DNA of 64,000 nucleotides. It comes from Escherichia coli. Lineage in GTDB: Bacteria; Pseudomonadota; Gammaproteobacteria; Enterobacterales; Enterobacteriaceae. The translations under genes and the position numbers were made by a program. Location: assembly GCF_044324785.1 (NCBI RefSeq), contig NZ_CP172127.1; one strand, written 5' to 3'. A model generated the notes under the pieces. That model did not search any database and was not told the origin of the DNA. It saw nothing but the letters and a program-made list of their open reading frames with translations. Shown here in pieces: positions 3,146 through 53,785 of this stretch (position 1 is its first letter; the number at the start of each line of letters is the position of its first letter).

Positions 3146-3571
3146 TTATTTCAACCGTTTACCCGCCTCATCAACCACTTTCTCGCCATCTTCCTTGGTG
3201 AACGCGCCTTGTTGCGCATTTGGCAGAATTTCCAGCACCACTTCTGAAGGGCGGCACAGGCGAGTTCCCAACGGCGTCACCACAATCGGGCGATTAATCA
3301 GAATCGGGTGCTGAAGCATAAAGTCGATTAACCGATCGTCAGTAAATTTATCTTCTGCAAGGCCCAGTTCCTCATACGGCTCGACGTTTTTACGCAACAG
3401 CGCGCGTACGGTAATCCCCATATCGGCAATGAGTTTGACCAGCTCATCGCGCGTTGGCGGTGTTTCCAGATAATAGATAATGGTCGGTTCTGTACCGCTG
3501 TTGCGGATCATCTCCAGCGTATTACGCGACGTACCGCAGGCCGGGTTGTGATAAATGGTAATGTTGCTCAT
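3146..3571 (-). CDS. arsC: Arsenate reductase (glutaredoxin-dependent)
   Basis: 141 aa, MSNITIYHNPACGTSRNTLEMIR..., recognised as E. coli ArsC. Confidence 0.95.
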   Translation of the reverse strand: MSNITIYHNPACGTSRNTLEMIRNSGTEPTIIYYLETPPTRDELVKLIADMGITVRALLRKNVEPYEELGLAEDKFTDDRLIDFMLQHPILINRPIVVTPLGTRLCRPSEVVLEILPNAQQGAFTKEDGEKVVDEAGKRLK

Positions 3572-3583
3572 ATCAATATCTCA

Positions 3584-4873
3584 TTACAAAGTGAAAGAGA
3601 GACGTAGCGCCAGCGCAGCCAGCGTCACAAAAAGCACCGGCAGGGTCATGATAATCCCTGTACGGAAGTAATATCCCCAGCTGATAGTCATATTCTTCTG
3701 CGAAAGAACGTGCAGCCAGAGTAGCGTAGCCAGGCTACCAATTGGGGTAATTTTCGGTCCCAAATCGCAGCCAATCACGTTGGCATAAACCATCGCTTCT
3801 TTGATAACGCCAGATGCCGTGCTGCCATCAATGGACAACGCGCCAACCAGTACCGTCGGCATATTGTTCATAATAGAAGAGAGGAAGGCAGTGAGGAATC
3901 CGGTGCCGAGCGTCGCGGCCCACAGGCCGTTTTCAGCCAGCACGTTGAGTACGCCAGAAAGATATTCCGTTAGTCCGGCATTGCGCAGGCCATAAACCAC
4001 CAGATACATGCCGAGCGAGAAGATGACAATCTGCCAGGGCGCACCGCGCAGGACTTTACCCGTATTAATTGCATGACCGCGTTTAGCGACGGCAAATAAT
4101 ATCAGCGCGCCCACTGCCGCAATGGCGCTTACCGGAATGCCGAGCGGTTCCAGGACGAAAAATCCCACCAGCAGAAGCAGTAAAACAACCCAGCCAGCTT
4201 TGAACGTAGCAGGATCTTTAATCGCTTCTGCGGGAGATTTCAGCAGCGCCATATCGTAGTTCTGCGGAATATCTTTGCGGAAATAGAGATGCAACATCAC
4301 CAGCGTGGCAACAATTGCGGCGATATCCACCGGCACCATCACCGAGGCATATTCGCGAAAGCCGAGGCCAAAGAAATCTGCGGAAACGATATTCACCAGG
4401 TTGGAGACAATAAGCGGCAGGCTGGCGGTATCGGCAATGAATCCGGCCGCCATCACAAACGCCAGCGTCGTGCCTTTACTGAACCCTAAAGCCAGCAGCA
4501 TGGCGATGACAATCGGTGTCAAAATAAGCGCCGCGCCATCATTGGCAAACAGGGCGGCAACGGCAGCACCGAGCAGGACAATCCAGGTAAACAGCAAGCG
4601 ACCGCGTCCATTGCCCCAGCGTGAGACGTGCAGCGCCGCCCACTCAAAAAAGCCGGACTCATCCAGCAGCAGGCTGATGATAATGACGGCAATAAACGCC
4701 GCCGTCGCGTTCCAGACGATATTCCACACCACAGGAATATCACCCGGATGTACCACGCCCGTAACTAACGCCAGTACTGCGCCGAGTGTTGCACTCCAGC
4801 CGATGCCTAAACCTTTCGGCTGCCAGATAACCAATACGATGGTCAGGACAAAGATAGCGCCTGCCAGTAACAT
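3584..4873 (-). CDS. arsB: Arsenite efflux pump
   Basis: 429 aa from [13 protein letters not shown]...; polytopic membrane protein; GGGAGG RBS before ATG 4873. Confidence 0.95.
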
Positions 4874-5427: not shown

Positions 5428-5525
5428 GGACGTAAAAAAACCGACTTTGCGTCGGTTTTTTACTTCCCAGCCCTGAGTTGGTGGCTCTGGCTGGAGTGAG
5501 AGAGCTCTTATCTAACAGCTCAATA
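5428..5525 (-). ncRNA. agrA: agrA/agrB-type antisense sRNA repeat, copy 1 (which copy is agrA and which is agrB is uncertain)
   Basis: ~95 nt unit repeated at 5663-5762; on the minus strand it ends in a hairpin CCGAC-GCAAA-GTCGG followed by a T-run; unit is near-complementary to the dinQ 5' region at 5919-5953. Confidence 0.45.
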
Positions 5526-5662: not shown

Positions 5663-5762
5663 GACGTAAAAAAACCGACTTCGCGTCGGTTTTTTACTTT
5701 CCAGCCCTGAGTTGGTGGCTCTGGTTGGAGTGAGAATGCCATCATCTAACGCATCAATGCTA
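5663..5762 (-). ncRNA. agrB: agrA/agrB-type antisense sRNA repeat, copy 2
   Basis: Second copy of the same unit with the same terminator hairpin; position matches the K-12 arsR-gor intergenic dinQ-agrAB locus. Confidence 0.45.
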
Positions 5763-6107: not shown

Positions 6108-6124
6108 TAGCGGAAACGTAACTA

Positions 6125-6153
6125 AGGGCAAAGAGCACACCACTCTTTGCCCT
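6125..6153 (+). terminator. Hairpin after dinQ, possible terminator
   Basis: AGGGCAAAGAG / CTCTTTGCCCT stem followed by TTAACATTT; weak U-tract. Confidence 0.35.
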
Positions 6154-6160
6154 TTAACAT

Positions 6161-17744: not shown

Positions 17745-18797
17745 TTATTTTTTAGCAGAACCCGCTTCTAATATTGAAACGATTGAGAACAACGTAAAGC
17801 ATACCGCTCCCAAACCGACCAGAACCCGCGAAGGAATAAAATATCCCATGTCGGTCTGCGCCATTTCCGCAAGAAACGATGCCAGGAAAAGGCAAAACAG
17901 GCAGGTGAAGACGGGAATCATCGGTATTCTGTTGGCTAACGAACAGGTACGTCTCCAGACCAGTGCCAGTAGCCAGACTTTTGAGAATATGCTGTAACAG
18001 ATCATTCCGAGGCAAATGAGGATAATGCCGGGAGCCAGTCGGGCGCTTGCATCGGAGCTGACTAACACGTATATCCCCTGCAGCACCGTGACTGAGCCGA
18101 GAAAAATAACCCAATAACACCACAGCCAGTGCTCTTTGGATGAGAACGTATTACGTGTTTGATGGACGATTGTGGCAACAAGACCAATTAGACAGGCACA
18201 GATTGCGGTTAACCCAAGCAATACGTGACCGGCGACATAATGCGGAGTTATGTCGGCACTACGTAACAGCGTAATAGACCAAATGAAACCGAGCAGGGTG
18301 AGTAAAACGGGAACGGCAATGAGGCAATTACCGATTAATGACGAATAAGCCTGTACCGGTGTTCCATCGCTCTTGCTCCCTGCTGCGTTTTTGGGAATGA
18401 GCAGAAAGTGACCGGATGACGCTGCCACTGTCGATACACAGGCGGCAATCATACCAACGCCAAAAATAACATGGCCGGCAACAAACTCGTCTGCCATCAC
18501 ATCATTGCCTGCTAACAGTGCCCAACCCCATATCATGGTGATAATTGACCCCGCATAGCCAATAATGGGGAACAATGTATTGTAAAACGTATTAACGCCG
18601 CGCGTGAGCTGCGAAATGATAATAAATGCGGTAGTGAATAATGCCAGGCATATGGCTGCCAGAGAAATTAGCACATGACCCGCGACGAAATACTCGCTTT
18701 GCCCTGAACTTTCCAGCACAAAGCCACCTAACGCGATACAAATTAAGCCCATAATTAAAGGGATTAATTTGAAAAGCCACCCGATATATATGTTCAC
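17745..18797 (-). CDS. yhiM: Inner membrane protein YhiM (DUF2776)
   Basis: 350 aa from GTG at 18797 (VNIYIGWLFKLIP) with GAGGAG RBS; polytopic, AT-rich. Confidence 0.85.
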   Translation of the reverse strand: MNIYIGWLFKLIPLIMGLICIALGGFVLESSGQSEYFVAGHVLISLAAICLALFTTAFIIISQLTRGVNTFYNTLFPIIGYAGSIITMIWGWALLAGNDVMADEFVAGHVIFGVGMIAACVSTVAASSGHFLLIPKNAAGSKSDGTPVQAYSSLIGNCLIAVPVLLTLLGFIWSITLLRSADITPHYVAGHVLLGLTAICACLIGLVATIVHQTRNTFSSKEHWLWCYWVIFLGSVTVLQGIYVLVSSDASARLAPGIILICLGMICYSIFSKVWLLALVWRRTCSLANRIPMIPVFTCLFCLFLASFLAEMAQTDMGYFIPSRVLVGLGAVCFTLFSIVSILEAGSAKK

Positions 18798-19179
18798 TTT
18801 AAACTCCTCAGGTATCCCTGCTAATATTGAAATGTGCATTAATGATAATTTCAGCCTGTTAATATAATGACGAGATATCATTAAAGACAAATGCATAGCA
18901 TAACTATAGCGGGATTTACTTTGCAGAGCGCTACTTTTCAGCGTTCAAAAGGCCATGGTAAATAAATATTTATCCTAAGATTAATTCTTATTCTGTTGTT
19001 TTTTACAATTATCTTCCAGGGAGGGATTCTTTTTCATTATTTGGTAAAAGACCGGATGGTATCGGTGCTTAAAATCAGCGAGCATATACGCATTATTGCT
19101 TTATATCGTCGAAAATATGTCTTTCAGACATGTATTATTTATTTTGTTACAAACAAGTCAAAAATATCACAGGTTATTT

Positions 19180-20787
19180 ATGAAAGCAATTCACAATCAG
19201 ATTATAAACATCTCTTCAAGCCATCAAGATAAGCATTCAGATAAAGTTAACGGTCATCAACACCATGGCAAGGTTGATAAAAAACATCGTGCAAAGATAG
19301 TTGAAATTGATAAGCTGAATAAACATTCGCAAATAGATAACGATTTTGGCCTGCATATCATCTATTTCCTGCAACATGGTCACTGGAAGGTAAATGATCG
19401 TAGTCACCAGATGGAGAAAGTATGGTTTTACAATAGTGAACCTTTTATAGATATTCAAGAATATAATAGATTCGCCGACAATACTACTGACACGTTTATC
19501 TTTACAATTATACCAGACAATAACCATGTGTTAAAATTATCGTCTCCCATTACCGTTACTGTTGAGTGTAAGGGCGGTTATTATTTTATTAATTCCTCTG
19601 GAGATGAATCAGACATAATTTATAAAGTTGATGGACTTTCTATCATACCTGAAAATTTCTTTACTCTTCTTAGCGGTAATTTTAAACCTGACTGGCGTTG
19701 GGATGTCTCTAAAGAGACGTTTCCTAAGGATAAGTTTGATAGCTATGTTAATTCTGTGTTTTCAAAAATAGATTTTTATAAACAGTGTGGTGTGATTAAC
19801 CCACAAAATCCCAACACGGCTTATTTTGGCGATACAGATGGAAGAGTAGGCGCTGTACTTTATGCATTGCTCGTTTCAGGGCATATAGGCATCAGGGAAA
19901 AGGGTTGGAGTTTATTATGTGAATTATTAAAACACGAAGACATGGCTTCATCTGCATACAAACATAAAAACAATAAAGTGCTCTACGATTTATTAAATAC
20001 GAGAGACATGATCTTGAATGAGTTGCATCAACATGTTTTTTTAAAGGACGATGCGATAACCCCTTGTATCTTCCTTGGGGATCATACAGGCGATAGATTT
20101 AGTACTATTTTTGGTGATAAATATATCCTTACTTTGCTAAATTCTATGCGAAATATGGAGGGTAATAAAGATAGCCGTATTAATAAAAATGTCGTCGTTC
20201 TGGCTGGAAATCATGAAATCAATTTTAATGGTAACTATACTGCACGATTAGCAAATCATAAACTCTCTGCCGGTGATACGTATAACTTAATTAAAACGCT
20301 CGATGTTTGTAATTATGACTCAGAAAGGCAAGTTTTAACCAGTCATCACGGAATAATAAGAGATGAAGAAAAAAAATGTTATTGTCTCGGTGCTTTGCAG
20401 GTTCCATTTAATCAGATGAAAAATCCTACTGATCCTGAAGAATTAGCCAATATTTTTAATAAAAAACATAAAGAACACATGGATGATCCTCTATTCCATC
20501 TAATCCGAAGCAATACTTTGAAACCCACACCTGTATATGCTAATTATTTTGATAACACTACTGATTTCAGACCAACACGTGAACGTATCTTCATATGTGG
20601 GGAGACACTCAAAGGTGAAGACCCCAGCAAATACATTAGACAAAAATATGGGCATCATGGGCCCGGGGTAGATCAGAATCAACAATTTGATAATGGTATT
20701 ATGGGGCTAAATTCCCTGAAGGAAGCACGTGATAAAAATAATAAAATAATTTATTCCTCAGGGCTTAGTTGTTTTCAATCTCATTAA
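19180..20787 (+). CDS. yhiL: YhiL/YhiJ-family protein (DUF4049), apparently intact; C-terminal half carries diverged metallophosphoesterase motifs
   Basis: Paralogous to the downstream yhiJ, sharing YFGDTDGxVGAVLYAL, FLGDxTGDRF and LAGNHE blocks; start at ATG 19180 (MKAIHNQ) preferred, ORF-track start 19096 possible; ~33% GC. Confidence 0.75.
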   Translation: MKAIHNQIINISSSHQDKHSDKVNGHQHHGKVDKKHRAKIVEIDKLNKHSQIDNDFGLHIIYFLQHGHWKVNDRSHQMEKVWFYNSEPFIDIQEYNRFADNTTDTFIFTIIPDNNHVLKLSSPITVTVECKGGYYFINSSGDESDIIYKVDGLSIIPENFFTLLSGNFKPDWRWDVSKETFPKDKFDSYVNSVFSKIDFYKQCGVINPQNPNTAYFGDTDGRVGAVLYALLVSGHIGIREKGWSLLCELLKHEDMASSAYKHKNNKVLYDLLNTRDMILNELHQHVFLKDDAITPCIFLGDHTGDRFSTIFGDKYILTLLNSMRNMEGNKDSRINKNVVVLAGNHEINFNGNYTARLANHKLSAGDTYNLIKTLDVCNYDSERQVLTSHHGIIRDEEKKCYCLGALQVPFNQMKNPTDPEELANIFNKKHKEHMDDPLFHLIRSNTLKPTPVYANYFDNTTDFRPTRERIFICGETLKGEDPSKYIRQKYGHHGPGVDQNQQFDNGIMGLNSLKEARDKNNKIIYSSGLSCFQSH

Positions 20788-20850
20788 AACTCCATGAATA
20801 CGGTGGTATGTCTTTTTAATCCTGCCAGTATTTCATAGGTTTTCTTAATC

Positions 20851-20887
20851 GATTGTAGAGGCATGTTCTGATGACGCCTCTACAATC
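20851..20887. other. Perfect 12-bp inverted repeat (hairpin) between yhiL and yhiJ
   Basis: GATTGTAGAGGC-N13-GCCTCTACAATC; no clear U-tract. Confidence 0.5.
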
Positions 20888-21048
20888 TTTAGGGACTTTC
20901 TCTGCTATGAGATAAGAAATTTCATATTATGCTTTAAGGCTGAATGATTTGTGCAAAACATAATTATTTTTCCATCGAACATGAGGTGTATGTCATAAGA
21001 TTAAATGATAACTATGTATTCCTTGCGGTGAATTATATGAGGTAAAAG

Positions 21049-53541: not shown

Positions 53542-53785
53542 TAAAAGCGTGTTATACTCTTTCCCTGCAATGGGTTCCGTAGCAGGGAAAGAGACCCCGT
53601 TGTCTCTTCCCGGTATTTCATCTCTATGTCACATTTTGTGCGTAATTTATTCACAAGCTTGCATTGAACTTGTGGATAAAATCACGGTCTGATAAAACAG
53701 TGAATGATAATCTCGTTGCTCTTAAGCTCTGGCACAGTTGTTGCTACCACTGAAGCGCCAGAAGATATCGATTGAGAGGATTTGA

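Follow-up and report, generated by a model that had tools for sequence, protein, structure and literature searches.

The perfect 12-bp inverted repeat located between the paralogous genes yhiL and yhiJ of Escherichia coli most probably represents an ordinary RNA stem-loop rather than a new type of element, and it probably matters little beyond annotation. We tentatively read it, at slightly short of even confidence, as a sense-strand stem-loop that sets and shields the 3' end of yhiL mRNA, of the type found on Rho-dependent transcripts and lacking a U-tract. The original prediction had offered either a protein-binding palindrome or an RNA processing or stability element. The RNA element is the best-supported of these options, based on the stability of the plus-strand fold, variants that form G.U pairs, a Rho termination region in K-12 and a location upstream of a candidate promoter, whereas the protein-binding palindrome is disfavored.

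A perfect inverted repeat downstream of yhiL

All coordinates below refer to the window, that is, the whole stretch of 64,000 nt of E. coli DNA that was analyzed. Both direct reading and a repeat search identified two 12-bp arms that are 100% complementary and separated by 13 nt (Table 1), exactly as they had been described. The hairpin starts at the 64th base past the yhiL stop codon (TAA at 20785-20787), the distance given originally, and lies 161 nt ahead of the yhiJ ATG. Its placement between two paralogs is also correct, as both flanking proteins contain a DUF4049 domain according to Pfam; the names yhiL and yhiJ are those annotated at the homologous loci of K-12 and O157. The window runs as the reverse complement of MG1655, in which the hairpin occupies minus-strand positions 3632788-3632752 of NC_000913.3.

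The sequence following the stem is TTTAGGGACTTTCTC, with 3 U's in 8 nt. There is no U-rich tract on the 3' side (tail UUUAGGGA) and no A-tract on the 5' side (UUCUUAAUC), and a U/C-rich run, CUUUCUCU, is found 9 nt further on. The earlier statement that the hairpin has no U-tract is therefore accurate except for the three U's right after the stem. A 14-codon ORF, MTPLQSLGTFSAMR (20871-20915), begins in the loop and crosses the right arm; it has no Shine-Dalgarno sequence and is thus probably meaningless.

First-order Markov simulations gave 0.145 expected perfect 12-bp inverted repeats with loops of 3-30 nt per 64 kb, and at least one such repeat appeared in 10.5% of the simulations. Six loci of this kind were observed in the window, which means that the class is strongly enriched, at ~40 times chance. 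Several of the others can be recognized as terminators, among them those of AgrA and AgrB and ones situated between convergent genes. Two near-identical hairpins of the form A6-stem-T6 are located at 5435-5461 and 5669-5695: the former coincides exactly with the 3' terminus of the K-12 small RNA AgrA, and the latter, judging from its position, should terminate AgrB in the dinQ-agrAB locus. Further perfect stems with no clear U-tract were noted at 6124-6154 and 61866-61896.

Table 1. Features of the yhiL-yhiJ region in window coordinates
Feature	Position	Strand	Sequence, basis or remark
yhiL, intact, 535 aa, DUF6860 + DUF4049	19180-20787	+	ORF, Pfam; hairpin in 3' untranslated region
C-over-G zone, C/G 1.6-2.4	20404-20585	+	Inside 3' part of yhiL; candidate rut if untranslated, as in K-12
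Upstream weaker AU-rich hairpin	20792-20839	+	~-10.8 kcal/mol; directly 3' of yhiL stop; fold prediction
Possible extended helix	20842-20895	+	UUCUUAA (20842-20848) with UUAGGGA (20889-20895); MFE and centroid fold
Left (5') arm	20851-20862	+	GATTGTAGAGGC
Loop, 13 nt	20863-20875	+	ATGTTCTGATGAC
Right (3') arm	20876-20887	+	GCCTCTACAATC, then UUUAGGGA
Candidate sigma-70 promoter of yhiJ	20934-20964	+	TTAAGG-19-CATAAT (K-12: TTGAGG-19-TATAAT); 47 nt past hairpin
yhiJ, 540 aa, DUF4049	21049-22671	+	ORF, Pfam

Folding of the sense-strand RNA

The 51-nt plus-strand RNA around the repeat has a predicted folding energy of -19.7 kcal/mol (z = -4.46), a value that none of 200 shuffled sequences equaled. 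It is the most stable 51-nt plus-strand fold within 18900-22700, the 3.8-kb yhiL-yhiJ island, and only 0.2% of windows with a GC content of at most 45% across the entire 64 kb match its stability. Half of the pairs in the stem (6 of 12) are G-C, and the 12-bp stem is part of the MFE structure as well as the centroid structure predicted for its 143-nt context (20788-20930). If three weak additional pairs (GUU/GAC) form, the loop shortens to an apical loop of 5 nt.

The helix may also be extended at its base, below a small internal loop, by 7 pairs (three of them G.U) to a total of ~19 bp, although this extension is not strictly kept, as C20844A/T and T20889C variants occur. Such a helix could serve as a site for RNase III (or another endonuclease) in a yhiL-yhiJ co-transcript, where a cut would uncouple the stability of the two cistrons: the 12 perfect pairs together with the extension make up nearly two helical turns, and the two genes are co-oriented and only 261 nt apart. 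Nevertheless, we consider a processing site of this kind quite improbable, considering that the internal loop interrupts the extension, that the haplotypes just mentioned lose it, and that yhiJ appears to own a promoter.

Between the yhiL stop codon and the strong stem, a weaker AU-rich hairpin is predicted, followed by UUUUCUUAAU (20840-20849) with 6 U's in 8 nt. Its basal stem is retained in most haplotypes, and A>G changes within it give G.U pairs. The terminator scan made no call at this hairpin.

Distribution of the hairpin and its genomic island

Using a 61-nt query, we located the hairpin in 4170 of the 5426 complete E. coli genomes, at one place per genome and in every case on the chromosome, while both the hairpin and the whole island are missing in ~23% of E. 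coli. The island is a yhiM-yhiL-yhiJ block (~18300-22819) with a GC content of 35-37%, compared with 51% for the window, and is absent from ~1250 of the 5426 genomes; in these, similarity to the window begins only at 22805-22819, ahead of yhiY and yhiI. A search for the same palindrome elsewhere in the genome had been proposed, and across the 4170 genomes no other place was found. Within the window, no second copy of the 12-mer exists, even when one mismatch is allowed. No Rfam match was detected at the hairpin (scan of 18000-24000, E <= 10) and no phage sequence matched it; three matches in a plasmid collection are records of 4.8-4.9 Mb and hence chromosomes, leaving no true plasmid match. 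An origin as the end of a mobile element or as phage- or plasmid-derived sequence was rejected on these grounds, since phages, plasmids and the rest of the genome yielded nothing similar. In several strains, the yhiL-yhiJ locus is broken by insertions of IS1 or IS2. One of them, strain PSS-15, carries IS1A in the yhiL-yhiJ spacer (3248-3945 of its locus L004), so that its match to the window resumes at 20928.

A peptide-pattern scan derived from the YhiL/YhiJ alignment detected no DUF4049 relatives in 100,044 species-representative genomes. Among the best 120 of 233 protein matches, all share at least 80% identity, with the exception of one shorter local match at 70%, and every match with a named source comes from E. 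coli or Shigella. The gene family thus appears to be confined to E. coli and Shigella, which makes cross-species covariation impossible and leaves within-species variation as the only source of comparative evidence.

Polymorphism of the stem among E. coli strains

We collected 98 sequences (89 metagenome contigs and nine genome loci) representing 19 haplotypes. The pattern used for the metagenome contigs was anchored on invariant flanks, and the hairpin itself was left free to vary. Four of the 24 stem positions vary in this set. The most common change, C20862T, occurs in ~23% of the sequences and turns the closing pair into U.G in plus-strand RNA; C20880T (three sequences) and C20878T (one sequence) likewise give G.U pairs in that strand. 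The only pair-breaking changes are G20855A and G20855T, found in one sequence each. In minus-strand RNA, the C>T changes of the stem become A.C mismatches, and in DNA they break the dyad. Variant haplotypes are predicted to fold more stably as plus-strand than as minus-strand RNA (-16.4 vs -14.3, -15.7 vs -13.4 and -13.7 vs -7.9). In total, 99.1% of cells in the 98 sequences are paired and three pairs show a one-sided change; no pair is changed on both sides in any of the 19 haplotypes, that is, there is no strict covariation.

The loop is variable at three of its 13 positions (20865, 20867, which is common, and 20873), and ~20% of sites in the rest of the spacer are variable in at least two sequences. 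Taking this spacer rate (~0.20) and assuming that one third of random substitutions preserve pairing, about 3 pair-breaking stem sites with variation in two or more sequences would be expected and none was seen (a rough Poisson P of ~0.04 that ignores relatedness). When all variable sites are counted, the stem (3-4 of 24) falls only mildly short of the spacer background. Polymorphism offers modest evidence for the retention of pairing in sense-strand RNA, and it speaks against a symmetric DNA site.

The latter point bears on the proposed protein-binding palindrome, in which a dimeric regulator would occupy two 12-bp half-sites ~100 bp upstream of the yhiJ start. The dyad symmetry is perfect here, and the repeat lies upstream of the candidate yhiJ promoter. 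However, neither the window nor any of the 4170 genomes contains the motif a second time, and C20862T, together with C20880T and C20878T, destroys the symmetry yet keeps RNA pairing. In addition, the arm centers are 25 bp apart, which places the half-sites on different faces of the helix. Older K-12 numbering runs ~1977 bp lower than that of NC_000913.3. If the published genomic SELEX and promoter-island positions are taken to follow it, they lie within yhiL and in the spacer between yhiL and yhiM, and not at the hairpin. Genomic SELEX papers name only RNA polymerase and H-NS for the yhiL-yhiJ spacer, and no transcription factor besides H-NS is reported there in the literature searched. A LexA operator was also considered and rejected: no CTGT-N8-ACAG match lies near the hairpin, the nearest being at 18993, upstream of yhiL. 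Taken together, a DNA operator is extremely unlikely.

A second alternative is that the palindrome has no function, that mutation, for instance template switching at a quasi-palindrome, created or perfected it, and that it only looks conserved because strains differ by just 2-4% in this region. Since the spacer is 96-100% identical among strains, invariance of the stem indeed carries little weight, and the lack of any double compensatory change, a variable-site density not far under that of the flanks, the poor expression and H-NS binding of the locus, and the absence of the element with its whole island from nearly a quarter of E. coli (~23%) all fit this explanation. On the other hand, the enrichment of perfect 12-bp repeats in the window, several of which are recognizable terminators, and the fact that all stem changes at appreciable frequency preserve pairing through G.U on the sense strand speak against it, and we regard this explanation as unlikely. 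It should be mentioned that the polymorphism analysis may also serve as a methodological example: flank-anchored population polymorphism can separate RNA constraint, seen as tolerance of G.U on one strand, from constraint on a DNA palindrome, and such a test is usable where no other species carries the locus.

Possible transcription termination in the yhiL-yhiJ spacer

The original prediction also held that the hairpin is not a classic intrinsic terminator, and our analysis agrees. Intrinsic terminators were defined here by a loop of 3-8 nt on a G+C-rich stem and at least 5 U's in the 8 nt directly 3' of the stem. The hairpin, with its loop of 13 nt and its 3 U's, falls outside both the loop and the U-tract limits, and a consensus scan found no terminator in 20300-21500.

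A weaker form of this function was also considered, in which the hairpin acts as a leaky intrinsic terminator or a hairpin-dependent pause, releasing or pausing polymerase without Rho or helping Rho to catch up; the AU-rich hairpin upstream, with its UUUUCUUAAU tail, may perhaps contribute. In favor of this possibility, the stable stem is directly followed by UUU, with CUUUCUCU a short distance on, the upstream hairpin precedes a stretch rich in U's, and the site, past a stop codon and ahead of the next promoter, is the usual place for a terminator. Against it stand the negative scan, the long loop and the 3/8 U's, as well as one natural haplotype in which UUU is changed to UCU with the stem intact. 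The AU-rich upstream hairpin, at -10.8 kcal/mol, is weak. Moreover, the drop in coverage at this locus in K-12 is sensitive to bicyclomycin and hence appears to depend on Rho. We therefore find a weak terminator or pause site doubtful.

The K-12 evidence comes from Adams et al. 2021 (supplementary file 2), who used DirectRNA-seq with and without bicyclomycin and reported a Rho termination region with a peak at 3632784(-). Upstream and downstream reads were 73/36 without and 182/249 with bicyclomycin (Rho score 2.77, P = 5e-6). The peak corresponds to window position 20855, inside the left arm of the hairpin; because the Rho score is computed from 800-nt windows, this match is coarse. No Term-seq RNA 3' end at 36327xx is listed in the tables of Adams et al. 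2021, and three control hairpins of the window are equally missing from them, so that the absence of an end at the hairpin says little. The supplement of the SMRT-Cappable-seq study has no entry for the yhiL-yhiJ locus.

It is important to note that yhiL is a pseudogene in K-12, where a single-base deletion in an A run at window position 20369 leads to a premature stop near 20418. This frameshift leaves ~370 nt untranslated, including the C-over-G zone (Table 1). Downstream of the hairpin there is no such zone, C/G being 0.4-1.0 over 20846-21100. Thus, the Rho signal of K-12 may reflect pseudogene polarity, and it need not occur in the strain analyzed here, in which yhiL is intact.

Flanking genes and a candidate yhiJ promoter

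YhiJ is 34% identical to YhiL. Both proteins contain GDxxGDR and LAGNHE motifs, which are typical of calcineurin-like metallophosphoesterases; the Pfam Metallophos model reaches YhiJ only with a score short of its cut-off (E 0.0086), and PADLOC gave no defense-system match. Sequence divergence among strains is far higher in yhiL than in its surroundings, specifically over 19900-20760 and especially 20500-20760: measured per 100 nt against strains E597 and O157, identity is 62-85% there, compared with 96-100% in yhiM, yhiJ, yhiI and the spacer, and YhiL protein alleles share between 81% and 96% identity. The idea that the hairpin marks the boundary of this hypervariable segment was discarded, as homology is back at ~20758, shortly ahead of the stop codon and 90 nt upstream of the hairpin.

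A one-mismatch LexA box, CTGTTGTTTTTTACAA (18993-19008), precedes the start of yhiL by ~170 nt. According to reviews, yhiL is one of the genes that may carry an SOS box. RNA of both yhiL and yhiJ goes up late after ciprofloxacin treatment.

For the yhiL-yhiJ spacer, Shimada 2014 described a constitutive RpoD promoter, 'TTGACG-19-TATAAT', marked HNS. The sole near match to these hexamers in the K-12 locus (L001 3235-3265) corresponds to the candidate yhiJ promoter at 20934-20964. Position 20959 is C in the window and T in K-12, O157 and E597, changing the candidate -10 element from TATAAT to CATAAT, and it is invariant among 67 metagenome sequences with full flanks. The elements of the region therefore follow one another in the order of yhiL stop codon, weak AU-rich hairpin, strong hairpin, candidate yhiJ promoter and yhiJ, which is the layout expected for a 3'-end element of the yhiL unit.

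Proposed role of the stem-loop

In the protective role that we tentatively favor, transcription of yhiL would allow the 12-bp stem, possibly extended to ~19 bp, to fold in the plus-strand 3' untranslated region. The stem would be inefficient as an intrinsic terminator. Polymerase would continue past it, and the read-through would be stopped diffusely by Rho, or the RNA would be cut further downstream. PNPase and RNase II may then shorten the tail as far as the stem; published work on Rho-dependent 3' stem-loops has shown that these two enzymes trim RNA back to such stems. The outcome would be a stable 3' end of the yhiL message, set apart from a yhiJ unit with its own candidate promoter. Three points of this scheme are inferred: the identity of the hairpin with the true 3' end, the arrest of exonucleases at it and its importance for the level of yhiL mRNA. 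If the protective stem-loop is confirmed, it would add one more 3' stem-loop without a U-tract to the transcript-end map of E. coli and mark where the yhiL unit of transcription gives way to that of yhiJ, which would be useful for these uncharacterized, E. coli-restricted DUF4049 genes.

A more elaborate scenario, in which the hairpin is a structured RNA or DNA control point where a specific factor or nuclease decides whether transcription proceeds from yhiL into yhiJ, is very unlikely. If true, it would mean that E. coli-specific, H-NS-silenced and SOS-linked DUF4049 paralogs are produced in a set ratio, and only under stress.

Comparison with known systems

Intrinsic terminators resemble the yhiL hairpin in having a stem-loop past a stop codon and some U's directly 3' of it. 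They differ from it in that only 3 U's and a loop of 13 nt are present here, the scan does not detect it, and the signal in K-12 appears to be Rho-dependent. REP/BIME elements, which stabilize the mRNA upstream of them, share the character of an intergenic palindrome between co-oriented genes, with a proposed role in blocking 3'-5' exonucleases. REP palindromes are GC-rich. Moreover, REP/BIME elements occur as repeated copies with a consensus, whereas the yhiL hairpin is single-copy, AT-rich and without an Rfam match.

Within the window, a parallel in architecture is a hairpin in the ftsX-rpoH spacer (CTCTTTCCCTGC...GCAGGGAAAGAG at 53557-53593, corresponding to K-12 3600976-3601012). It likewise has a perfect 12-bp stem, a loop of 13 nt and no U-tract, although its sequence is unrelated. 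The two hairpins also share their placement, directly past the last gene of one unit and ahead of the promoters of the next co-oriented gene.

With regard to Rho-dependent termini, these show on average a mild excess of C over G downstream, a tendency and not a requirement; here, the excess of C over G lies upstream and is exposed only in the frameshifted K-12 allele. Compared with the protective 3' stem-loops of Rho-dependent transcripts, the yhiL hairpin differs in that its 13-nt loop is long and its 3' end is a predicted one. What it shares with them is a stable stem-loop just past the coding region, with neither a U-rich tail nor an A-tract, within a region where bicyclomycin raises read-through in K-12 (measured in 800-nt windows and with a frameshifted K-12 yhiL).
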